Shown here piece after piece: positions 1 to 10,844 of a stretch of DNA of 10,844 bases. The translations under genes and the position numbers were made by a program. The notes below the pieces were generated by a model that was not told the DNA's origin, ran no database searches, and saw nothing but the letters and a program-made list of their open reading frames with translations. Position 1 is the stretch's first letter. Every line of letters starts with the position of its first letter. Origin of the DNA: a virus (taxonomy: Duplodnaviria > Heunggongvirae > Uroviricota > Caudoviricetes); the IMG/VR virus record IMGVR_UViG_2537561687_000016, positions 1 to 10,844 of that record; one strand, written 5' to 3'.

Positions 1-1170
1 ATGCCCCTAAATGATATGCAGATTCGCTGTGCTAAACCTGAAGCTAAAGCCTATACACTTGGGGATGGGCAAGGGCTGTCTTTACTTGTAGAGCCAAATG
101 GAAGTAAAAGCTGGCGATTTCGTTATCGCTATGCAGGTAAACCTAAAATGATCTCGCTTGGTGTCTATCCAACGATCACACTTGCTGAAGCTCGTTCCCG
201 TCGTGATGAGGCCCGAAAAATAGTGGCTGAGGGAAAAAACCCTAGTGAGGTACGAAAAGAGCAAAAACTAGCATTAAGAATTCAATCTGAGAATGCATTC
301 GAAAAGATTGCTAGAGAGTGGCATCGGATGAAGTCTTTAAAATGGTCTGCTGGGTACGCCTCGGATATTATGGAGGCGTTCCAGAACGATATTTTTCCGT
401 ATGTGGGAACTAGGCCTGTAGGAGAAATTAAACCGCTAGAGCTGTTAAATGTACTGCGTAAAATTGAGAAGCGTGGCGCATTGGAGAAAATGCGAAAAGT
501 ACGGCAACGTTGCTCAGAAGTTTTTCGATATGCCATTGCCACCGGAAGAGCAGAGTTTAATCCTGCCGCAGATCTGTCCAGTGCTCTCGAAGTACATAAA
601 TCAAATCATTTTCCATTCTTAAAATCAGATGAGATACCTGATTTTCTGCGTGCTTTAGAGCGCTATACAGGGAGTCGACTTGTCGTTATTGCTACGAAGT
701 TATTGATGATCACGGGAGTAAGAACCATCGAATTACGTACCGCATTATGGTCAGAATTTGATTTGGATAACGCTATTTGGGAAATTCCCGCTGAAAGAAT
801 GAAAATGCGCAGGTCACATCTTGTGCCATTGTCGACCCAAGCGTTAGATTTACTTAATGAACTCAAGATAATGACAGGGAACTATCGTTATGTTTTTCCG
901 GGGCGGAATGATCCGAAAAAGCCTATGAGTGAGGCGAGTATCAACCAAGTCATCAAACGTATCGGTTATAACGGGAGAGTGACGGGGCATGGATTTAGGC
1001 ACACATTGTCTACAATATTGCATGAAGAATGTTACGATTCTGCATGGATAGAGATGCAATTAGCTCATGTAGATAGAAATAATATACGTGGTACTTATAA
1101 TCATGCTCAATATTTAGAAAAAAGAATAAGCATGATGCAATGGTATTCAAATAAATTACTTGGTGAATAA
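1..1170 (+). CDS. int: P4-family tyrosine integrase (site-specific recombinase), 389 aa
   Basis: ORF starts at window position 1 (ATG). N-terminal MPLNDMQIRCAKP...GDGQGLSLLVEPNGSKSWRFRY resembles the P4/CP4-57 integrase arm-binding region. C-terminal catalytic region HGFRHT...LAHVDRNNIRGTYNHAQYLEKR carries the conserved R/H and the RGTY tyrosine. May be preceded by an att site/tRNA outside the window. Confidence 0.9.
   Translation: MPLNDMQIRCAKPEAKAYTLGDGQGLSLLVEPNGSKSWRFRYRYAGKPKMISLGVYPTITLAEARSRRDEARKIVAEGKNPSEVRKEQKLALRIQSENAFEKIAREWHRMKSLKWSAGYASDIMEAFQNDIFPYVGTRPVGEIKPLELLNVLRKIEKRGALEKMRKVRQRCSEVFRYAIATGRAEFNPAADLSSALEVHKSNHFPFLKSDEIPDFLRALERYTGSRLVVIATKLLMITGVRTIELRTALWSEFDLDNAIWEIPAERMKMRRSHLVPLSTQALDLLNELKIMTGNYRYVFPGRNDPKKPMSEASINQVIKRIGYNGRVTGHGFRHTLSTILHEECYDSAWIEMQLAHVDRNNIRGTYNHAQYLEKRISMMQWYSNKLLGE
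1074..1101 (+). promoter_or_regulatory. Candidate sigma70-type promoter embedded in the 3' end of int, possibly driving the cargo gene
   Basis: TATAAT at 1096-1101 with a weak -35-like TAGAAA at 1074-1079 (16-nt spacer). There is no intergenic space between int and the cargo (2 nt), so any dedicated promoter must lie inside int. Pattern match only. Confidence 0.25.
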
Positions 1171-1172
1171 TT

Positions 1173-3920
1173 ATGAATGTTGACATTAAACATTTTGAAC
1201 ACATTATTAAAGCTGCAGATGACAACTCACTAGCAATTTTTGTCGGAGCTGGGGTATCTAAATCAGCGGAGAATGATACAACCAAATTACCTACATGGTC
1301 AGATTTGATCGAAGAGTTAAAAATAGATCTTGGTATAACCTATGAATTAGATTACCTGAAAGTGGCACAATTATATTTTTTAGAATTTGGTCCTCATACT
1401 TACTATAAGAAAATCAAAAAGTATTTCCCTGACAATCTTGTTCCATCTAAAATACATGAATTAATTTTTGGGATAAATCCGCATTATGTAATTACTACAA
1501 ATTGGGATTGTCTGCTTGAGACTTCGATGTTAGAAAATGCATATATTTATGACTTGGTTTGCAGTGATCAGGATCTAATGAAATCAAGCCTTGATAAAAA
1601 ACTTATTAAAATGCATGGTGATTTCAAGAATCATAATATAGTTTTCAAAGAAGATGATTACATCAATTATGAATTTAATTTTCCATTGTTGTCGAATTAT
1701 ATAAAGAGCATATTATCAACTCACACAATAATTTTTATTGGCTATTCTTATAGTGATATTGATATTAAGCAAATAATAAAATGGGCTCAAAATCATACAT
1801 CGATACGCCCTCCAATGTATTTGTTGGTGTATGAAAATGACGTTGTGCAAAGTCGGTACTTAGCAAGTCATGGTGTGCAGACTCTCATGGCAGGAGATTA
1901 CAATGGTGGTGGGTATTCTGATTATCGAACTAACAAATTATATGGTTTTCTGAAGTCAGTAAAAGATAAAAAAGTTAGTAGTAGTGTTGATAAAAGTGTA
2001 ATTAATATTGTTTTTGCAAAGTTAGCAGAGCTTGGAACATTAAATGCAATATTAGCCGATCAGATTACTAGTTGTTTAGGTGAATGTTATATAGTTTATC
2101 GTGAGGTTGAAAATCGTCAGGTTGCATTATTAAAGTTCTATAGGAATGAAGCAACTCAGTTACAAAATGCAGAGCTCAGAGAAATTTATGCTAAATTTAA
2201 AAGAATTATAAAGACTAGCGATGATACAGGAGAGCATAGAAACTTACTTGGACCAATATTTGATATATTACAAAAAGCAGATATTGCTGGTGTAATCTGC
2301 GACGATGAAGACAAAGAAGCTGTTTTGACTCGTGATATGGCAACAACTCCTGTGAGAAAAAAAGCAGTTGAGGTTTTTAGGTTTGATTATAATAATAAAT
2401 TTGATTTTAGTAAAAAAAATAAATCAATTATGAATTTAAGCTTCGATAAAACAGATCCTTATCTATTTTATCAGCAATGTGATTTTGAAATGGCTTATCA
2501 TGCGGTTGATATTATAATTAAGCATGAGTTGAAGCATAAAAACTATGCCTCATTACTTATATCCCTTTTAAACCATAATATGATTTTACATGTTTTAAAA
2601 AATAGTTTTTTTCACAGGCGAGATAATTTCAGCGATTCAGAATCTTATGATATTAATGAGAGGTTTGACAACTTTCCAAAAAACGTGAAGAGATCACTAT
2701 CTACTTTGTTAGATATTGTTAATGTTGATTATATGTTCAAGTTTATACATTCTGTAGATAAGATACTAACAAAAAATAAAGATAGAGAAGATAAGAAGAC
2801 TTTTTTTTACTTGGATGCTGAAGAGTATAAAACTGATTTTGTTCATAAAAATATACTTTACTTCATAAAAGAAAATGGTTGTCTTGTTGATAACTATTCT
2901 GAGTTTAAATATGCTATTAATAAGATATTTGAGATAAAGGCTACAAAGCAAAAATCACAGGTAAATAATGATTCGATATTGTTTTCATTAGAGGAATTAT
3001 ACTCTGCAATTAAGTATTTAGAAAGTAATAGCCTTAAGGAAAAATTCAAATATAAAAAGAGAAATAAATATCTGAAGTTAGAATTAGATAGTGAAAGTGC
3101 AGAATGGTTGTTGAATCATGCTTTCAAGGAGTTGAGTCAGTTTTATAGAGAGAAAAAAGGAGTAGGTAATTATCATTTGGAGTCATTTAAAAATGCACTT
3201 TATCTTTTAGCCTTTTCTGATGAAAGCCATAATGATAAGGAATTGATTTATAGAGAGTTAATTGGCTTGGTTAGTGGTGATTACAATCAACTCGATTTTA
3301 TTGATTGCATTACTGAATATGTGACAATCTGTTTTAATAATAAAGGGAAGATAGATTTAGAGTTTATAAGAGGTTTGATGAATGGTTTGATTGAAAATTA
3401 TTCGTCATCAACAATTAAACAGAGACGCTACTTCAATAATATATTGAACTCTGCACGTAATATTTTCATCATTGCTAATGAGTTAGGTTTATCATTTGAT
3501 AATCATGTCTTATTGAAGCAATTATTATCGTCGGTAAATGATTGCGAATCTATCGAAAAAATTAGAACTGTAGAAACCATTATTTACGAACTTTTTATTG
3601 TTGGGGATGAACTGACTAAGAAAATGATAAAGGAGTTTATTAGTTTACTTGATATAGAACAATTTGGACACGATAAAAAAATCAAGTTTAAACTTTTTTT
3701 ATTGGCTGCTAGCATAATTGAAAAAGATGATCGTATAGCTAATGATACTCTTACTATGATTAAAAATTTATCCAAGAATAAATTTAGTTCGGAATTGTAC
3801 TCAATGAGAAATACACTCGAATTTTTAGTTAATAATAAAAAGATGCAGGAATTTTCTGAATCTTATGACGAAATAAAAAAAGTGATCTCACTTTTAGAAA
3901 ATAAATATCTAAGTCATTAA
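1173..3920 (+). CDS. SIR2-like (SIR2_2-type) domain protein, 915 aa, with large C-terminal domain of unknown function; candidate single-gene anti-phage defence protein (DSR-like)
   Basis: Complete ORF, ATG 1173 to TAA 3918-3920. N-terminal approx 230 aa show SIR2-like hallmarks: Rossmann FVGAGVSKS (res 23-31), TWSDL, ITTNWD with Asn110 (nt 1500-1502), KMHGD with His148 (nt 1614-1616), FIGYSYSDID (res 188-197). No Walker A or other catalytic motif seen in the remaining ~650 aa. Strongly AT-rich versus the flanking backbone. Confidence 0.75.
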   Translation: MNVDIKHFEHIIKAADDNSLAIFVGAGVSKSAENDTTKLPTWSDLIEELKIDLGITYELDYLKVAQLYFLEFGPHTYYKKIKKYFPDNLVPSKIHELIFGINPHYVITTNWDCLLETSMLENAYIYDLVCSDQDLMKSSLDKKLIKMHGDFKNHNIVFKEDDYINYEFNFPLLSNYIKSILSTHTIIFIGYSYSDIDIKQIIKWAQNHTSIRPPMYLLVYENDVVQSRYLASHGVQTLMAGDYNGGGYSDYRTNKLYGFLKSVKDKKVSSSVDKSVINIVFAKLAELGTLNAILADQITSCLGECYIVYREVENRQVALLKFYRNEATQLQNAELREIYAKFKRIIKTSDDTGEHRNLLGPIFDILQKADIAGVICDDEDKEAVLTRDMATTPVRKKAVEVFRFDYNNKFDFSKKNKSIMNLSFDKTDPYLFYQQCDFEMAYHAVDIIIKHELKHKNYASLLISLLNHNMILHVLKNSFFHRRDNFSDSESYDINERFDNFPKNVKRSLSTLLDIVNVDYMFKFIHSVDKILTKNKDREDKKTFFYLDAEEYKTDFVHKNILYFIKENGCLVDNYSEFKYAINKIFEIKATKQKSQVNNDSILFSLEELYSAIKYLESNSLKEKFKYKKRNKYLKLELDSESAEWLLNHAFKELSQFYREKKGVGNYHLESFKNALYLLAFSDESHNDKELIYRELIGLVSGDYNQLDFIDCITEYVTICFNNKGKIDLEFIRGLMNGLIENYSSSTIKQRRYFNNILNSARNIFIIANELGLSFDNHVLLKQLLSSVNDCESIEKIRTVETIIYELFIVGDELTKKMIKEFISLLDIEQFGHDKKIKFKLFLLAASIIEKDDRIANDTLTMIKNLSKNKFSSELYSMRNTLEFLVNNKKMQEFSESYDEIKKVISLLENKYLSH

Positions 3921-3984
3921 AGTAACTTTTATGATTTTTTATTATCGATAATTGCAGCAATTATAAGATGAGCGTTAGTGCGCA

Positions 3985-4003
3985 GTGCTTTCCCCGCCTC
4001 GCC
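3985..4003. other. cos site core (P2/P4-type 19-nt cohesive end sequence)
   Basis: GTGCTTTCCCCGCCTCGCC at 3985-4003 is the exact reverse complement of GGCGAGGCGGGGAAAGCAC, which I recall as the 19-nt cohesive end of P2/P4. Immediately followed by a GC-rich stem (4003-4008 pairing with 4017-4022) and TTTT. Confidence 0.7.
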
Positions 4004-4104
4004 CGCCCGCTTTGCGGGGCGGTTTTAATGCAGTTGCACTGACACGCTCAGGCCGTGCCGGGCGTGGCCTGGTATACAGAAAATGAGGCAGGAAAACGCA
4101 TGCA

Positions 4105-4137
4105 AAGCCATGCACCTTATCGATGCATGGCTTTTTT
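4105..4137 (+). terminator. Rho-independent terminator-like hairpin (plus-strand orientation)
   Basis: AAGCCATGCA (4105-4114) pairs with TGCATGGCTT (4124-4133), 9-nt loop, followed by a T-run (4132-4137). Lies between cos and the 3' end of psu, positioned to stop read-through from the int/cargo side. Confidence 0.5.
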
Positions 4138-4167
4138 CAGTAAAAACGGGCGGATTTTCGGGGAATT

Positions 4168-4740
4168 TTACACAGACTGACGTGATGCCAGTTGCGCACT
4201 TTTACGCGAAAAAATCATGTTCTGCGCAGGAGTGAATTTTTCACGGCTGTCATCCACCGAAGCCGCGTCAGGCCTGAATCCGATGGTCGTTAAAATGTCG
4301 CTATCCTGTGCGGAATAATTAATTTTTTCACCCTTCGCAAGCCAGGACAGAAGGGCTTCACGCAGGGCATCTGTGGCACGCTGTATGGCACAGTTTCGGG
4401 CAATGGCCGTCAGCTCACTGTAGCCCATCAGCTCCGGTGCCAGTGCCGCCGCCAGTGCTGTGCCGTGCTGCTGCATAAAATCATTCAGCCGGTCGCGGAT
4501 GCTGATGTGCTGAACGGCTTCATGCGAACGAATATAACGACCGGCGGCCTGATTCACCTGCCATTTTCTGACTTCGATAATATTGCGTAATTCGTCCAGG
4601 CGACTGACGTTTCTGCCTTCTCCTGACAGAAGCCGCAGATATTCCTGTTCGGCCGCTGCCAGCTCATTTTTGCGTTGCAGCCATGCTGCTTTGTTATTCT
4701 GACAGGTGTCAAAGGCCTGCTGTAAGGCTGTGCTTTCCAT
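4168..4740 (-). CDS. psu: Psu-like polarity suppression / capsid decoration protein, 190 aa
   Basis: 190-aa ORF, same length as P4 Psu; N-terminus MESTALQQAFDTCQNNKAAWLQRKNELAAAEQEY matches my recollection of P4 Psu. Last gene of the minus-strand sid-delta-psu operon. Confidence 0.85.
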   Translation of the reverse strand: MESTALQQAFDTCQNNKAAWLQRKNELAAAEQEYLRLLSGEGRNVSRLDELRNIIEVRKWQVNQAAGRYIRSHEAVQHISIRDRLNDFMQQHGTALAAALAPELMGYSELTAIARNCAIQRATDALREALLSWLAKGEKINYSAQDSDILTTIGFRPDAASVDDSREKFTPAQNMIFSRKSAQLASRQSV

Positions 4741-4813
4741 CGTTATCTCTTTCTCATCATGCTGAAGAATAAAAATACGGTGTGCGGCGACGGCCGGTGT
4801 TAACCGGCAGCCC

Positions 4814-5314
4814 TCATTCCAGACGCAGCGAATATGATTGTGTTTTTAACCGTACTGGCGGCAGTTCCTGTTTTTCATGCAGGCGTTCTGCCAGTTCGTC
4901 CGGCGTGACCGGGCGGACAATGAAGCGGTTGATGGTCTGAAGCGTTTTAAACACCAGACCACAGCCCGGATCCGTGCACACATAAAAACGCTCGGTGACT
5001 TCCTGAGACAGACGCCGCGATGTTCTTGACAGTGCAAGGCCTTTACATCTCCGACAACAATATCCGGTAACAAGCATTCTTTTCGGGCGTTTCATACTGC
5101 CGGAGGCTGACGTCAGTGAATCGCGGTATCTCTGTTTGCCTGAAATGTATTCCATTCCTGAATCTTTACTGTCAGAGAAAAAGCTTTCACTCGCTTCAAA
5201 TGTCGCAGAGCAATAAATATTCCGGCACTGTGCAATCATTATCTTGGTGCCATCGTCCATGAAATGTGCGCGACGGGTGTGAGCAACATGTCCACACGAC
5301 GGGCAGTAAATCAT
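4814..5314 (-). CDS. delta: Delta-like late transcriptional activator (tandem Ogr-type zinc fingers), 166 aa
   Basis: 166 aa, same length as P4 Delta. Two Cys-rich Ogr-like modules (MIYCPSCGH...C...C and CRRC...CTDPGCG). Start codon overlaps the sid stop (ATGA at 5311-5314). Confidence 0.85.
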   Translation of the reverse strand: MIYCPSCGHVAHTRRAHFMDDGTKIMIAQCRNIYCSATFEASESFFSDSKDSGMEYISGKQRYRDSLTSASGSMKRPKRMLVTGYCCRRCKGLALSRTSRRLSQEVTERFYVCTDPGCGLVFKTLQTINRFIVRPVTPDELAERLHEKQELPPVRLKTQSYSLRLE

Positions 5315-6044
5315 GACAGCAGTCCTCTGGCCTTAAGCTCTGCTCCCTGCTGGTCTATTTTGTCCTGCCACACCTTGCGCTGTGCCGGTGTGCCTGCCAC
5401 CTCATAATCCATGTGCGGGAGTGTTGCCGCTGACAGTCCGGTCAGCCGGAGAACCGGCTCGCCGGTGAGGCTGATTTGCATCTGTTTAATTTTCTGTTCC
5501 AGCGATGATTTCACCTGCTGCATGACAGCCTTTTCCGGTGCGACGTAGCCCTGATGGCCGGTGGTGTTGGCGAGCGGATTTTCCTGTACCAGAATGCTCA
5601 GATGCATTGCCCGGACAAGCGCCTCACAGGTTTCATTCAGGGCGTGTTCCAGCTCATGCTCTGCATACAGACTCAGAAGGTGATGATGTGCCTTCCGGTA
5701 GGCGGTGGCCGTGCTGTCACACGCCCCTTTCAGGCGTTCCGTTCAAAATTCAGCACCACGGCCAGATTGTCATATTCCTGTACCAGCTCCCGGCGTGCCA
5801 CGCGCTCAATGTGGCGCTGTTTCAGCTCGTCGCTCAGGACACCACCGGCTGCACGAAAGGCCGTGCGCCAGTCGTCAGCGTCGTTTCCGTCGGCCTGCGC
5901 CAGCGCATTTTTTTCCTGCTCTGCCCGTTCAATGGCCGTGACGGTCTCATCCATCAGGCGGGCGTTCTCAAGATGGGCGGCTCTGGCCTTTTCCAGTTGT
6001 GCCAGTGCGGGTTGCAGATATTCAGGGATGGTGTTGTCAGACAT
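5311..6044 (-). pseudogene. sid: sid-like capsid size determination gene with an apparent 1-nt frameshift (two ORF fragments)
   Basis: N-terminal fragment (ATG at 6044-6042 with AGGAG RBS, to TGA at 5732-5730) begins MSDNTIPEYLQPALAQLEKARAAH. C-terminal fragment continues in another frame to TGA at 5313-5311. Total span 734 nt, one short of the 735 nt needed for a 244-aa Sid plus stop. Frame switch lies around 5725-5740. Confidence 0.6.
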
Positions 6045-6116
6045 TTTCCGGCTCCTCGTCACTTCAGGTTAAGAAAATTGTGACGTACACCGGACAACAA
6101 CACGACGCATTGCAGA

Positions 6117-6134
6117 TGTGCCAGCCCTGACACA
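6117..6134 (-). promoter_or_regulatory. TGT-N12-ACA dyad, candidate Delta/Ogr activator site of the leftward late promoter (P_sid-like)
   Basis: TGTGCCAGCCCTGACACA at 6117-6134. Centre is about 80 bp upstream of the sid ATG (6044), compatible with the roughly -55 position of Ogr/Delta sites at P2/P4 late promoters. Confidence 0.5.
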
Positions 6135-6213
6135 GGAGACTCATCCTCAGACCGGCAAGCCAGGAAAAGGTCGCAGGAAAAACCGGCTTACTGTTTGTTT
6201 TTTTATATTTTAC

Positions 6214-6317
6214 TGTTCACCTCTGTTCACCATAAGAAAAAAGATAAGTAATACAGTAAGTTAAAGGGTGAACAATCGCAGTAATGACTGTTCACCGTCT
6301 GTTCACCACTGTTCACC
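6214..6317. repeat. Iteron array: five direct copies and one inverted copy of TGTTCACC, candidate alpha-binding replication origin (P4 ori-like)
   Basis: Direct copies at 6214-6221, 6224-6231, 6289-6296, 6300-6307, 6310-6317 (spacing 10-11 bp); inverted copy GGTGAACA at 6267-6274. TGTTCACC is, as I recall, the type I iteron bound by P4 alpha at ori and crr. Array lies about 4.7 kb upstream of the projected alpha 3' end. Confidence 0.6.
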
Positions 6318-6420
6318 CGCTGATGGACTTTTTGTGCTGTTTACTACTGTTTGTTTTTATTAATTCGCCGTGAATGAATAAGAAGAAACGATTTGTATTT
6401 CACTATAAAAATTACGAATT

Positions 6421-6450
6421 GCTTTAAGTGGCTTTAAATGACTTTAAGTG
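6421..6450. repeat. Three tandem 10-bp repeats (GCTTTAAGTG / GCTTTAAATG / ACTTTAAGTG), candidate regulator binding sites
   Basis: Perfectly contiguous decamers with 1-2 mismatches, about 27 bp upstream of the rightward TGT-N12-ACA dyad. Function unknown. Confidence 0.4.
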
Positions 6451-6476
6451 GAGATGAACAAAAAACACACAGCCAT

Positions 6477-6494
6477 TGTAAGGCTGCCGGAACA
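6477..6494 (+). promoter_or_regulatory. TGT-N12-ACA dyad, candidate Delta/Ogr activator site of the rightward late promoter (P_LL-like) upstream of vis
   Basis: TGTAAGGCTGCCGGAACA at 6477-6494; centre about 110 bp upstream of the vis ATG (6597). Confidence 0.45.
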
Positions 6495-6596
6495 AATCCC
6501 CCCTGTTGCGTCTGCCAAAAATATTCACAAAATAAAGCGCTACCCGAAGCCGGACGGACTTATCCGGTGCTGTATGGACATTAACGAGGTAGCCCG

Positions 6597-6863
6597 ATGC
6601 AAGCTGTTTTTTCTTCCCCGTCTCCCGCCCCTGTGACGCCACTGATGCCGCTGCCGGACATCACGCAGGAGCGTTTTTTACGTCTGCCGGAAGTGATGCA
6701 CCTGTGCGGCCTGTCACGCTCGACCATCTACGAACTCATCCGTAAGGGGGAATTTCCGCCGCAGGTGAGTCTTGGCGGTAAAAATGTGGCCTGGCTGCAC
6801 TCTGAAGTCACCGCATGGATGGCCGGACGCATTGCCGGACGCAAACGGGGGTACGACGCATGA
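6597..6863 (+). CDS. vis: Vis-like (AlpA-family) small HTH DNA-binding regulator/excisionase, 88 aa
   Basis: 88 aa, same length as P4 orf88 (Vis). HTH-like core [27 protein letters not shown] typical of AlpA/Vis regulators. GAGG RBS at 6586-6589. Confidence 0.8.
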
Positions 6864-6898
6864 TGATGCCCGCTCTGCAAAAACTCCCTTTTTCTGGC

Positions 6899-6928
6899 TT
6901 GCCTTTTTCCGGCATTTGCGGATATAGT
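6899..6928 (+). promoter_or_regulatory. Candidate sigma70 promoter (P_LE-like) for the immunity/early operon
   Basis: TTGCCT (6899-6904), 18-nt spacer, TATAGT (6923-6928). A perfect 7-bp hairpin follows at 6935-6954 (GCTGCCG / CGGCAGC). Pattern match only. Confidence 0.35.
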
Positions 6929-7249
6929 TTTTCCGCTGCCGCAAAATCGGCAGCCGGGCGTGAGAACCCGAGTAAGTCAAAGGCGACATATGACGCGCCA
7001 TGCGTCTTTTTTTGTGTCGCAATCAACGCCACAGAGCGCCAGATTATGGTGTGGCGTGTGGTTTGCCGTGCAGGTATGATCCTGTTCGCAATCGCATGTT
7101 ATGCCACTGAGTCAATGGTAGCTCAGGCGGGGCAGCCTCCGGGCTGGCCGGTATCCTATGACGCCGGTATTCTCACCCCCGTCTGGGCTATCGCCATCGA
7201 GCGTGAGAACTCCGGCGATAGCGTTATTTGCTACTCAGGAGGCTGCCTT

Positions 7250-7447
7250 ATGGCTACAACCCTTACCCCCTCACACCCTGAATTTGTCTTTGTGTTTGCG
7301 GCTGTCCGTCGCGCAGACCGTCATCCCCGTATCTGCATGCTTCGCACCGTCGCCGGTGATGAACGCAGCGCCCGCCGTTCCCTTGTCCGTGACTATGTGC
7401 TCTCCCTTGCTGCCCGTCTGCCGGTGGTGGAGGTGTCCCGTGCGTAA
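7250..7447 (+). CDS. Small hypothetical protein of the P4-like early operon, 65 aa
   Basis: ATG at 7250 preceded by AGGAGG (7236-7241). This is the 3' 65 codons of the 210-aa track ORF, whose upstream part overlaps vis, the promoter and structured leader and is unlikely to be coding. Identity not recognised. Confidence 0.45.
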
Positions 7448-7727
7448 TAAAAAAGCCCCTCAGACCGTCTCAGCACGTCATGACGCCCGTGAACACCTCA
7501 GCATTGAGGCTTACCATAAGCTCAACCGCGCCAGCGCCGTATCCCAGTTTGTTGGGGGTGATTTGATTCACCGTGAACTCTCCGGCCTGCATCAGCTCTA
7601 CATTCCGCATATTTTCAGCTACCTGAATGAAGATATTGATTTTGTGCTGAATGAGCTGAAAGCCAAAGGCCTGTGCCGCGATTTTCTCGCCCAGCAGAAA
7701 GACCGGGGAGACAGGACGCATGTTTGA
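7440..7727 (+). CDS. Small protein, 95 aa, possible epsilon-like helper derepression protein (tentative)
   Basis: GTG at 7440 preceded by GGAGGTG. Overlaps the previous stop by 8 nt and ends in ATGtttTGA overlap with the next gene. 95 aa fits my uncertain recollection of P4 epsilon. An in-frame ATG at 7395 without RBS is an alternative start. Confidence 0.4.
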
Positions 7728-8175
7728 TTTTCCCCAGCCCGGTGAGATTTACCGTTCTGCCGGTTTTCCCGATGTGGCCGTGGTCGGCATTCTGGAAGAC
7801 GGTATTCCGTGGGAAATGCCGTACCGCTGCCCGGACATTGTCTGGAACCCGTACCGCCGTAAATTCAGTATCCTTGTGCGTATCCTCGCTGACGGGCGCA
7901 CCACAGACATCCCGCTGGGGCGTTTTCTGCGGGAATTTACCTGTGACCGTCCTGACCTGTTTAAACGCAGCCCCGTAAACCGGCATGCGGTACTGAAAGA
8001 AATGGCCGGAGACCCGGAATTACAGAAATGGCGGGAGAAATATCTGGATATTTACCCGCAGGACACTGTTCCGGTCAGCCGGGCAGCACCGGTGGCGCGG
8101 GAATGGCGGGAAATTCCCCGCACGGAGCCTGACCCGGAAACCACCCCGGATAACAGTTACCGCAATTATCTGTAA
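7720..8175 (+). CDS. P4 orf151-like hypothetical protein, 151 aa
   Basis: 151-aa ORF immediately upstream of the alpha region, with GGGGAG RBS. Length and position match P4 orf151. Function unknown. Confidence 0.7.
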   Translation: MFDFPQPGEIYRSAGFPDVAVVGILEDGIPWEMPYRCPDIVWNPYRRKFSILVRILADGRTTDIPLGRFLREFTCDRPDLFKRSPVNRHAVLKEMAGDPELQKWREKYLDIYPQDTVPVSRAAPVAREWREIPRTEPDPETTPDNSYRNYL

Positions 8176-8310
8176 TTAAAAAACGACACCCGAAAAATTA
8201 AATGTGCGTATTCGCGCAGGGATACGCACGTCTTCAGGAGACGCAGATATGCCTTATCAGTTAATGCAACCGGCACGGAATGCAGTCATCTGTCACAGGG
8301 AGGAAAGCAA

Positions 8311-8631
8311 ATGAAAACACCCTTACCGCCCGTCTTACGCGCTGCCCTTTACCGTCGCGCTGTCGCCTGTGCCTGGCTGACCGTGTGCGAACGTCAGCAC
8401 CGCTACCCGCATCTCACCCTTGAATCACTGGAGGCGGCCATCGCCGCTGAGCTGGAAGGCTTTTATCTGCGCCAGCACGGTGAGGAAAAAGGGCGTCAGA
8501 TAGCCTGTGCCCTGCTGGAAGATTTAATGGAATCCGGCCCCCTGAAGGCCGCGCCGTCGCTGTCCTTTCTCGGGCTGGTTGTGATGGATGAACTCTGTGC
8601 CCGTCACATAAAAGCGCCGGTACTGCACTGA
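8311..8631 (+). CDS. P4 orf106-like hypothetical protein, 106 aa
   Basis: 106-aa ORF with GGAGG RBS (8298-8302), ending 14 nt before the alpha start. Length matches the P4 orf106 name; position assignment is from memory and uncertain. Confidence 0.6.
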
Positions 8632-8645
8632 AGGAGAACAACACC

Positions 8646-10844
8646 ATGAAAATGAACGTAACCGCCACCGTCAGCCATGCGCTCGGCCACTGGCCGCGTA
8701 TTCTCCCGGCGCTGGGGATTCAGGTGCTGAAAAACCGTCATCAGCCCTGTCCGGTCTGTGGCGGGAGTGACCGCTTCCGTTTTGATGACAGGGAGGGGCG
8801 CGGCACCTGGTACTGCAATCAGTGTGGTGCCGGTGACGGCCTGAAACTGGTTGAAAAGGTGTTTGGTGTTTCCCCGTCCGACGCGGCCGCAAAGGTGGCT
8901 GCCGTGACCGGCAGCCTGCCCCCGGCTGACCCGGCAGTGACGGCTGCCGCCGGTGCTGAAACAGACGCTGCCCGGAAGAACGCCGCCGCACTGGCACAAA
9001 CCCTGATGGCAAAAACCCGTCCCGGAACCGGTAACGCCTACCTGACCCGCAAGGGCTTTCCCGGCCGGGAATGCCGGATGCTGACCGGCACACACAGAGC
9101 CGGTGGCGTGAGCTGGCGCGCCGGTGACCTTGTGGTGCCACTGTATGACGACAGCGGCGAACTGGTTAACCTTCAGTTAATCAGTGCTGACGGCCGTAAG
9201 CGCACCCTGAAAGGCGGACAGGTCAGGGGCACCTGTCACACCCTTGAAGGACAGAATCAGGCCGGAAAACGTCTGTGGATAGCGGAGGGATACGCGACCG
9301 CACTTACCGTACATCACCTGACCGGTGAAACGGTGATGGTGGCGCTTTCTTCCGTGAACCTCCTTTCTCTGGCCAGCCTTGCCCGGCAGAAGCATCCGGC
9401 CTGTCAGATTGTCCTTGCCGCAGACCGTGACCTCAGCGGTGACGGCCAGAAAAAAGCCGCCGCAGCCGCAGATGCGTGTGAGGGCGTTGTTGCCCTGCCG
9501 CCGGTCTTCGGTGACTGGAATGATGCCTTCACGCAGTACGGCGGGGAGGCCACCCGTAAGGCCATTTACGATGCCATCCGGCCACCGGCTGAAAGCCCGT
9601 TCGACACCATGAGCGAAGCAGAGTTTTCCGCCATGAGTACCAGCGAAAAGGCCATGCGTATCTATGAGCATTACGGCGAGGCGCTCGCGGTCGATGCCAA
9701 CGGCCAGCTTCTGTCCCGTTATGAAAATGGTGTCTGGAAGGTGCTGCCGCCACAGGACTTTGCCCGGGATGTGGCCGGGCTGTTTCAGCGTCTGCGCGCG
9801 CCGTTCTCCTCCGGGAAGGTGGCCTCCGTGGTGGACACCCTGAAGCTGATTATTCCGCAGCAGGAAGCCCCCTCCCGCCGCCTGATTGGCTTTCGTAACG
9901 GCGTGCTCGACACGCAGAACGGCACGTTCCACCCGCACAGTCCGTCACACTGGATGCGCACCCTGTGCGATGTGGATTTCACCCCGCCGGTGGACGGTGA
10001 AACGCTGGAAACCCACGCCCCCGCGTTCTGGCGCTGGCTTGACCGTGCCGCCGGTGGCCGTGCGGAAAAACGCGACGTGATTCTGGCCGCACTGTTTATG
10101 GTGCTGGCAAACCGCTACGACTGGCAGCTCTTTCTGGAGGTGACCGGTCCCGGCGGCAGCGGCAAAAGTATCATGGCCGAAATAGCCACCCTGCTGGCCG
10201 GGGAGGATAACGCCACGTCGGCCACCATTGAGACGCTGGAATCCCCGCGTGAACGTGCCGCGTTAACTGGCTTCTCACTGATACGCCTGCCGGACCAGGA
10301 AAAATGGAGCGGCGACGGTGCCGGACTCAAGGCCATCACCGGCGGCGATGCGGTGTCCGTGGACCCGAAATACCGGGATGCGTACTCCACGCATATCCCG
10401 GCGGTGATTCTGGCCGTGAACAATAACCCGATGCGCTTCACCGACCGCAGCGGCGGCGTGTCACGCCGGCGGGTGATTATTCACTTCCCGGAACAGATAG
10501 CCCCGCAGGAGCGCGACCCGCAGCTTAAGGACAAAATCACCCGCGAGCTGGCGGTCATCGTGCGTCACCTGATGCAGAAGTTCAGCGACCCGATGCTCGC
10601 CCGGTCACTGCTTCAGTCCCAGCAGAACTCAGACGAGGCGCTGAACATCAAACGGGATGCCGACCCGACGTTTGATTTTATCGGCTATCTGGAAACCCTG
10701 CCGCAGACCAGCGGCATGTATATGGGGAACGCCAGTATCATCCCGCGTAATTACCGTAAATACCTCTATCACGCCTATCTGGCTTACATGGAGGCAAACG
10801 GCTACCGGAATGTACTCAGTCTGAAAATGTTCGGGCTGGGGCTG
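8646..10844 (+). CDS. alpha: Alpha-like primase-helicase (zinc-binding N-terminus, Toprim primase, D5/SF3-type helicase), 3'-partial (733 codons in window)
   Basis: ATG 8646 with AAGGAG RBS. I translated the frame by hand over the N-terminal ~280 codons and the last ~250 codons and found no stop; the middle section was not checked codon by codon. This ORF is absent from the supplied track, presumably because it has no stop within the window. Motifs: CPVCGGSDRFRFDDREGRGTWYCNQCG, Toprim-like WIAEGYATALTV and VLAADRDLSGDG, Walker A GPGGSGKS (approx 10146-10169). P4 alpha is 777 aa as I recall, so about 44 codons are missing. Confidence 0.9.
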   Translation, partial: MKMNVTATVSHALGHWPRILPALGIQVLKNRHQPCPVCGGSDRFRFDDREGRGTWYCNQCGAGDGLKLVEKVFGVSPSDAAAKVAAVTGSLPPADPAVTAAAGAETDAARKNAAALAQTLMAKTRPGTGNAYLTRKGFPGRECRMLTGTHRAGGVSWRAGDLVVPLYDDSGELVNLQLISADGRKRTLKGGQVRGTCHTLEGQNQAGKRLWIAEGYATALTVHHLTGETVMVALSSVNLLSLASLARQKHPACQIVLAADRDLSGDGQKKAAAAADACEGVVALPPVFGDWNDAFTQYGGEATRKAIYDAIRPPAESPFDTMSEAEFSAMSTSEKAMRIYEHYGEALAVDANGQLLSRYENGVWKVLPPQDFARDVAGLFQRLRAPFSSGKVASVVDTLKLIIPQQEAPSRRLIGFRNGVLDTQNGTFHPHSPSHWMRTLCDVDFTPPVDGETLETHAPAFWRWLDRAAGGRAEKRDVILAALFMVLANRYDWQLFLEVTGPGGSGKSIMAEIATLLAGEDNATSATIETLESPRERAALTGFSLIRLPDQEKWSGDGAGLKAITGGDAVSVDPKYRDAYSTHIPAVILAVNNNPMRFTDRSGGVSRRRVIIHFPEQIAPQERDPQLKDKITRELAVIVRHLMQKFSDPMLARSLLQSQQNSDEALNIKRDADPTFDFIGYLETLPQTSGMYMGNASIIPRNYRKYLYHAYLAYMEANGYRNVLSLKMFGLGL

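Follow-up and report, generated by a model that had tools for sequence, protein, structure and literature searches.

An RNA immunity leader of the P4 type in a satellite prophage of Escherichia coli, with co-variation of its seqA, seqB and seqC elements

Does the region between the vis and kil genes of this prophage carry an RNA immunity determinant like that of satellite phage P4? The question arises from a direct repeat, GCGTGAGAAC, which was predicted to enclose a complementary core in the manner of the P4 elements seqA, seqB and seqC. Positions given here refer to the window, that is, the whole 10,844-nt stretch of viral DNA that was analysed, and all features lie on its plus strand. Inspection of the window reveals the repeat at 6958-6967 and 7201-7210, and these are its sole two copies even with one mismatch allowed. 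The complementary core TTCTCAC is located at 7170-7176, inside the interval 7167-7180 to which it had been assigned. Of 300 dinucleotide shuffles of the window, 32 (~11%) contained two direct copies of a 10-mer no more than 300 nt apart and enclosing a 7-mer complement; in the real window, apart from this locus, such an arrangement is seen at the P4 ori repeats (about 6212-6317) alone. The bare pattern is therefore not significant alone, and the case rests on homology and co-variation.

Comparison with the P4 genome (NC_001609) shows that window positions 4004-10844 are collinear with P4 11624 to 4771 on the reverse strand, with 98.4% identity over 6.8 kb. Gene order in this P4-like part is psu, delta, sid, ori, vis (orf88), leader, kil/eta, epsilon, orf151, orf106 and alpha; the genes flanking the leader, vis upstream and kil/eta through alpha downstream, are the same as in P4. 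In contrast, positions 1-4003 have no P4 counterpart and encode a tyrosine integrase unlike that of P4 and a SIR2-domain protein of 915 aa, the gene for the latter standing in place of the P4 gop/beta/cII region. The nearest chromosomal relative is a prophage of E. coli strain 120899, which is 99.1% identical to the whole window. Among 5426 complete E. coli genomes, the 371-nt leader finds a match in 1048 with megablast and in 2575 with blastn, the latter count taking in C4-only matches on P1-like plasmids; on such E. coli plasmids only the C4 part of the query is matched, at 73-84% identity. Because the leader matches so many E. coli genomes, the window can be regarded as a common P4-type satellite prophage. 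The sid gene is frameshifted (about 5739), which may point to a partly defective prophage or to indel errors in the assembly.

The last gene before the immunity leader is vis (P4 orf88), which encodes an AlpA-family regulator/excisionase (6597-6863; Pfam Phage_AlpA, 74 bits; P4 9030-8764, ORF88) and whose stop codon overlaps the eta start in the sequence ATGA (6860-6863). A P_LE-like promoter had been proposed upstream of the repeats, and a promoter scan recovers it as a constitutive PLE-type promoter with the sigma-70-like arrangement TTGCCT-18-TATAGT at 6899-6928. This promoter is identical to P4 8728-8699, and the -10 box falls on the one marked 'consensus -10' in the P4 record X02534. Its transcript should start near 6935. 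Leader hairpin 1 (6935-6954, GCUGCCG-CAAAAU-CGGCAGC) folds as anticipated into a 7-bp stem of -11.8 kcal/mol (z -3.9), a stability reached by 0 of 200 shuffles. The seqA element is placed not in this hairpin but in the second one (6955-6970, CGGG-CGUGAGAA-CCCG), where the upstream target of CI occupies an 8-nt loop and the sequence is identical to P4. Both hairpins fall within 6922-6974, which matches the Rfam model of C4 target hairpins, c4-a1b1 (RF03163), over its full length at 50.8 bits, above the gathering score.

A terminator scan identifies an intrinsic terminator at 6992-7012, GACGCG-CCA-UGCGUC followed by U7, with its stem at 6992-7006, T7 in the DNA and one loop substitution relative to P4. 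We take this terminator to be the one named t1 in P4, where termination at t1 is said to depend on CI. A comparable hairpin and T-run is present in 11 of 18 relatives. The 5' hairpin, the seqA hairpin and t1 together compose a short leader RNA (6935-7012), IsrK-like and also termed 'seqA RNA', which matches the full Rfam isrK model (RF01394) at 71.3 bits against a gathering score of 50, with t1 as the terminal hairpin of the model. The spacer between t1 and CI is variable: the majority of changes relative to P4 fall within 7055-7108, where there are about 20 substitutions and a 9-nt deletion that keeps the frame.

The original prediction envisaged a P4-like cI RNA locus in which seqB faces flanking seqA and seqC, with an RNA of ~70 nt. 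The region is 96% identical to P4, and alignment with P4 places cI at 7117-7195 (P4 8501-8423), within the region that had been proposed, with the three elements base-for-base identical. The small RNA gene stands, on the Rfam C4 match and the P4 mapping, and only its size needs revision, to about 79 nt; P4 8501-8423 are presumably the ends of the 79-nt CI RNA mapped by Forti et al. 2002. Rfam assigns 7111-7198 to the C4 antisense RNA family (RF01695, clan CL00128) at 75.4 bits against a gathering score of 45, covering model positions 1-87 of 87 (E = 1e-13). Two substitutions, at 7158 and 7162, are all that separate the gene from that of P4, and each lies in the loop that caps the major stem.

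RNA folding yields a CI cloverleaf with a minimum free energy (MFE) of -49.3 kcal/mol (z about -5.1), composed of a 16-bp stalk (7117-7132 / 7177-7192), a minor stem-loop (7133-7146) and a major stem-loop (7147-7168). The loop of the latter, AUCCUAUGAC (7153-7162), is complementary in relatives to the ribosome-binding region of the downstream gene, a complementarity that is weakened here. The antisense element seqB, AUUCUCAC (7169-7176), is left unpaired in a single-stranded bulge, and both target hairpins present their targets in loops. Downstream of CI, the predicted hairpin at 7187-7222 does form, with a 9-bp stem (7187-7195 / 7214-7222) of -18.8 kcal/mol that carries seqC (7201-7210) in its apical part; it is identical to P4 and is directly followed on its 3' side by the U-rich tail GUUAUUU. 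Predicted duplexes reach -21.3 kcal/mol for seqB:seqA and -16.4 kcal/mol for seqB:seqC. The 5' arm of the seqC hairpin is at the same time the 3' strand and tail of the CI stalk, a layout found in 18 of 18 loci. Since the strand is shared, the seqC hairpin and the CI stalk would be mutually exclusive in the primary transcript, and we infer that this exclusivity has a functional meaning.

The order and spacing of all elements are as in P4, and seqA, seqB, seqC, both target hairpins, the CI stalk and the promoter are identical in sequence. Judged at this level, the locus belongs to the P4 immunity system, every testable defining feature of which is found here, and no feature of the sequence contradicts this explanation. 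By its model scores the locus is also a member of the Rfam C4, c4-a1b1 and isrK families.

To examine co-variation, one genome per species was scanned with the pattern GCAAAATC-N6-CGGG-N7-9-CCCG. The pattern proved too loose, in that most of its 120 matches were chance occurrences in unrelated phyla, and 18 gammaproteobacterial loci were kept and checked by Rfam. They come from Erwinia, Kluyvera, Kosakonia, Enterobacter, Brenneria, Rahnella, uncultured Enterobacteriaceae, Aeromonas, Vibrio, Acinetobacter, Xanthomonas and several Pseudomonas, one Pseudomonas locus having two modules of which one was analysed, as well as from Dryocola. Since the hairpin-1 loop and the CGGG/CCCG stem were part of the search pattern, the locus set says nothing about how well they are conserved. 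A full-length C4 RNA lies 56-144 nt downstream of the target hairpins in 17 of the 18 loci; the Dryocola locus gave no C4 match with Rfam. These 17 loci and the window form a co-variation set of 18, in which the loop 8-mer has 12 different core sequences.

Whole-C4 RNAduplex predictions against the targets were drawn to GC-rich stems in several loci, and a G-U-tolerant score of cognate versus non-cognate pairs was uninformative; exact 7-mer tests were therefore used instead. The exact 7-nt complement of seqA is present in the cognate C4 bulge in 18/18 loci, compared with 1/290 non-cognate combinations. Likewise, an exact second copy of seqA, corresponding to seqC, lies within 20 nt (<=20) after the cognate C4 in every locus (18/18), compared with 0/290 non-cognate combinations. 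The fold is constrained as well: RNAalifold with 20 sequences gives 27 consensus pairs, 17 of them with compensatory changes, and leaves the seqB bulge unpaired. Within E. coli, P4-like elements display three specificities, CGTGAGAA, CGTAGGAA and CGTGGAAA, each altered consistently at all three sites. The window and the 120899 element illustrate such a change, with GA/AG at 6962-63 (seqA), TC/CT at 7173-74 (seqB) and GA/AG at 7205-06 (seqC). All three sites have switched in concert, while the rest of the two sequences is nearly identical. With all three sites switched, the 120899 element should be heteroimmune to the window element, and the identity of seqA, seqB and seqC to those of P4 predicts that the window element is homoimmune with P4.

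A further complementarity did not show this behaviour. The CI minor stem at 7131-7140 (GGCAGCCUCC) is a perfect 10-nt complement of the kil Shine-Dalgarno region at 7239-7248 (GGAGGCUGCC), and this pairing dominates the MFE fold of the whole leader. In Brenneria and uncultured Enterobacteriaceae loci the Shine-Dalgarno region is the same and the minor stem differs. Because there is no co-variation, the match was rejected as a selected pairing.

By analogy with P4, then, the region is very probably the immunity leader of a P4-type satellite prophage of E. coli and should work as its P4 counterpart does. At the level of sequence, the evidence consists of the anatomy and its identity with P4, of the complementary elements, and of the evolutionary constraint acting on the three pairing partners and the RNA fold. 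In P4, transcription is ended at terminators named t1 and t4 and at the Rho-dependent timm, and PNPase acts at the CI 3' end. If the window element follows P4, constitutive transcription from PLE (6899-6928) would produce, in order, the 5' hairpin, the seqA hairpin, t1, CI RNA, the seqC hairpin, and then kil and the replication genes epsilon, orf151, orf106 and alpha. RNase P would cut the 5' end of CI and PNPase its 3' end, as P4 work indicates, and CI would accumulate. Newly made PLE transcripts would then be bound in trans by its seqB, at both seqA and seqC, with two predicted outcomes: premature termination at t1 and further downstream, and a block to kil translation that would expose the transcript to Rho. 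Through this termination and the kil block, the replication operon would be off in the lysogen and a superinfecting P4 would be repressed. Transcripts from PLL would escape termination because eta is translated through the region.

Published work on P4 agrees with this scheme. CI is made by processing of an untranslated leader and acts as an antisense RNA on seqA and seqC, leading to premature termination (PMC4825925), and it is a substrate of RNase P (PMC5499578). CI/seqA interactions bring rapid termination to transcripts that start at the constitutive promoter within eta; Kil is translated only upon read-through, and eta translation from the upstream late promoter prevents termination (PMC10111431). 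The P4 RNA immunity switch is thus already known, and the present finding is correct, not new: the earlier interpretation is supported and sharpened, in that the locus is the P4 immunity leader itself.

The relationship extends to the C4 RNA of phages P1 and P7 (immI, c4-icd-ant), which belongs to the same RNA family and adopts a cloverleaf. There, too, an antisense RNA is processed from the leader of the operon that it represses, targets lie on both sides of the RNA gene, and an Icd-like gene is directly downstream. P4 CI and P1/P7 C4 are both RNase P substrates (PMC5499578). The two systems differ in what is controlled: in P1, C4 blocks the antirepressor Ant under the protein repressor C1, whereas P4 has no protein repressor and CI terminates transcription of the replication operon. 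The Rfam C4 and IsrK families have in turn been equated with P4 CI RNA and the seqA leader (PMC3632133, PMC4825925).

This last equation brings in a different activity for the leader. The 6935-7012 RNA may act in trans as IsrK of Salmonella Gifsy-1 does, activating the read-through transcript, or it may serve as a decoy or sponge for CI. The full-length match to the isrK model, at the score given above, speaks for such a role, and t1 is predicted to yield a discrete 78-nt RNA carrying seqA. P4 SeqA RNA has been described as a structural homolog of IsrK, and the STnc1160 RNA downstream of IsrK may act like CI (PMC4825925). In Gifsy-1, a lambdoid prophage, IsrK is a dual-function small/messenger RNA that activates anrP translation, and its short form acts in trans on the long isoform (PMC4825925). 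A TraDIS screen in S. Typhi moreover showed a requirement for the IsrK-like element of P4-like prophages; the authors called the part that this element plays in lysogenic maintenance unclear (PMC3632133). Against this, seqA is an exact complement of the CI bulge, the two co-vary, and P4 genetics give seqA the role of a target. We know of no activating role like that of IsrK for the P4 leader. An IsrK-type activity therefore seems unlikely here, and it would in any event add to the CI mechanism, not replace it.

Considerably weaker is the reading in which the region encodes a protein repressor (cI or ash) and the repeats and hairpins are incidental to its coding sequence. Database records give this reading its footing: NC_001609 and X51522 place here a cI 'transcriptional repressor' of 137 aa, and X02534 labels the stretch 'put. 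ash gene'. The frame is indeed open, as the eta ORF (6860-7447, open back to 6815), and it matches Pfam Phage_ASH (PF10554) at 75 bits. This ORF starts at the vis stop codon and spans the entire leader, the CI RNA gene included, and PGAP annotates the same ORF, beginning at the vis stop, in E. coli relatives. Its 3' end is kil (7250-7447), which encodes a 65-aa Icd-like cell-division inhibitor (NCBIfam phage_ICD_like, 76 bits against a cut-off of 25) and is the first gene translated from PLE transcripts. Translation of kil has its ribosome-binding site in AGGAGG (7237-7242) and its start codon at 7250-7252, and the conserved motif AGGAGGCTGCC..ATGGCTAC recurs in relatives.

The eta ORF is real, but its role is different from that of a repressor. 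In P4, eta is translated only from the upstream PLL promoter, and Kil is a truncated form of Eta (PMC10111431). Searches of the ORF with Pfam and NCBIfam returned Phage_ASH and the C-terminal Icd-like match only, with no DNA-binding domain (HTH or other). The conserved core behaves as an RNA, with 17 of its 27 pairs showing compensatory changes, and three short elements co-vary as pairing partners over 12 specificities, which a repressor protein does not need. P4 immunity is reported to be retained when an in-frame stop is introduced upstream of the CI RNA gene and the RNA structure is left intact. The immunity factor is moreover published as an untranslated RNA (PMC4825925, PMC3632133, PMC10111431). 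On these grounds we consider a protein repressor highly improbable. A functionless chance arrangement, for which the shuffled windows with a like pattern might be cited, has practically no likelihood left, given elements identical to the experimentally defined elements of P4, three Rfam families above their gathering scores and three sites that co-vary in all loci of the set.

With the P4-type RNA immunity leader as the preferred reading, the main value of the result lies in correct annotation, namely of a P4-type satellite prophage with an RNA immunity determinant. The RNA gene is annotated in none of the GenBank/RefSeq records examined, in which the ORF is called 'transcriptional repressor', 'ash family protein' or 'Icd-like protein'. 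The window and the 120899 element together also offer an instance from nature of an RNA repressor evolving a new specificity, a principle that is already established.

The CI major loop shows a second complementarity, to the kil ribosome-binding region. In relatives, the C4 major loop is complementary to 6-10 nt running into the Shine-Dalgarno sequence of the Icd/kil-like gene, with 7-10 nt in 13 of 19 loci. The contact co-varies, both across the family and among the P4-like elements of E. coli: the longest exact complement between major loop and ribosome-binding region averages 7.6 nt for cognate pairs versus 4.6 for non-cognate pairs. Six of seven E. coli relatives have 9 bp, each with a different sequence pair, and the seventh has 9 bp with one G-U pair. 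In P4 the contact pairs UCCUGUGAA with UUCACAGGA at -15.3 kcal/mol, and in strain 120899 it reaches -12.9 kcal/mol. The window retains UCCU:AGGA and two pairs across a bulge (4+2 bp), at -6.3 kcal/mol. Both sides of the contact differ from P4, the loop at 7158 and 7162 and the target at 7234 and by a 2-nt deletion after 7235, and these changes on two sides occur without compensation. Restoring 'AT' in 7231-7240 (CTCATAGGA) would give 8 bp with the window's own loop. The same loop recurs in an independent IMG/VR contig of 99.5% identity, whose target is different but likewise imperfect (-6.8 kcal/mol). A metagenome scan returned no match to the exact major stem-loop of the window.

These comparisons lead us to raise, as a doubtful suggestion, that specificity in P4-type satellites depends also on a further contact, in which the major loop pairs with the 9 nt leading into the kil Shine-Dalgarno sequence, and that this contact has decayed in the window and in the 99.5% identical contig, leaving Kil translation partly uncoupled from CI. 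A contact as weak as that of the window, compared with P4, may loosen control of kil translation, and window-type elements would then have leakier or differently tuned immunity. The eroded contact may reflect looser kil control in a sub-lineage, drift or, for the indel, an assembly error. To our knowledge the second contact is not part of the P4 seqA/B/C model. A similar two-site target arrangement exists for P1 C4, hence it is not new for the family.

An artefact was considered as the source of the 2-nt deletion. The independent contig has a different, equally imperfect target, yet further indels are present in both assemblies, and a sequencing error is possible. Just upstream of the kil start, two indels distinguish the window from P4, this 2-nt deletion (7235/7236) and a 1-nt deletion (7247).

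Comparison of 18 family members (loci L004-L076) reveals that in every one (18 of 18) the C4 stalk and the hairpin displaying seqC share a strand, which is the 3' side of the stalk and the 5' arm of the hairpin. Because this strand is shared, the primary transcript can adopt either the fold of the mature RNA or the target hairpin, but not both at once. Inspection of the locus from Pseudomonas sp. H11T01 (L036) reveals two complete modules, each comprising a target hairpin and a C4 RNA, at 2173-2371 and 2898-3100 on the same strand and ~730 nt apart. The locus thus holds two RNA immunity cassettes in tandem, and their specificities differ (loop CGTCGCGG versus TTTGGTCA).

Two segments of CI RNA are complementary to the region immediately upstream of kil, the Icd-like gene at 7250-7447. 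Complementarity between the CI major loop (7153-7162) and the kil ribosome-binding region (7231-7240) co-varies across the family. This potential contact comprises 9 bp in P4 versus 4+2 bp in the window, where the loss of major-loop pairing stems from changes on both sides that do not compensate for one another. Comparable decay of the contact is observed in L133, an IMG/VR contig 99.5% identical to the window. The second segment is the CI minor stem (7131-7140, GGCAGCCUCC), which is perfectly complementary over 10 nt to the kil Shine-Dalgarno region (7239-7248, GGAGGCUGCC), and the same 10-nt complementarity is present in P4. When the leader is folded in its unprocessed form, pairing between the minor stem and the Shine-Dalgarno region gives rise to an alternative, long-range structure (-151 kcal/mol, z -6.4), and no co-variation of this pairing is seen in the Brenneria and Enterobacteriaceae relatives.

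Differences from P4 are concentrated in the spacer between the intrinsic terminator t1 and CI RNA (7055-7108), whose 54 nt carry ~20 substitutions as well as an in-frame deletion of 9 nt; divergence across the remaining backbone averages ~1.5%. The spacer lies within the eta ORF, directly 5' of the presumed RNase P site. A second dense block, of ~40 differences, separates the window from the 99.1%-identical prophage of E. coli 120899 at 6320-6466 (ori and the region upstream of vis), yet here the window remains close to P4. Since this block is distant from 120899 and close to P4, the sequence comparison suggests a mosaic or recombinant history, one that would also cover immunity specificity.

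Annotation of the region corresponding to window positions 6815-7447 omits CI/C4 RNA in every record examined (NC_001609, X51522, X02534 and E. coli loci L124-L131). The P4 RefSeq record still places a protein of 137 aa over CI RNA, under the label 'cI gene product / transcriptional repressor'. Within the eta ORF, the Pfam Phage_ASH match falls where the frame runs across the RNA, and the PGAP 'ash family protein' call in P1-like plasmids coincides exactly with a C4 RNA. Because both fall on the RNA, much of the conservation of the ash protein family may be owed to the RNA itself.

Elsewhere in the window, the capsid-size gene sid (5311-6062, minus strand) is split into two ORFs, 5311-5607 and 5730-6062, by a 1-nt deletion at ~5739 relative to both P4 and E. 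coli 120899. Either sid is a pseudogene or the deletion is an assembly error; a near-identical IMG/VR contig carries a different indel in sid, a few bases from ~5739.

The first codon of the window is the ATG of a 389-aa tyrosine integrase. It contains P4-type arm-binding, central and catalytic domains but lacks similarity to P4 int at the DNA level. Next within 1-3920 comes a protein of 915 aa that begins with a SIR2 domain (Pfam SIR2_2; ThsA-like by PADLOC) and whose C-terminal ~650 residues match no family. The two genes occupy the int-psu slot, described as the anti-phage hotspot of P4-like satellites (PMC9122126), and the pair is found at 100% identity in five E. coli chromosomes.
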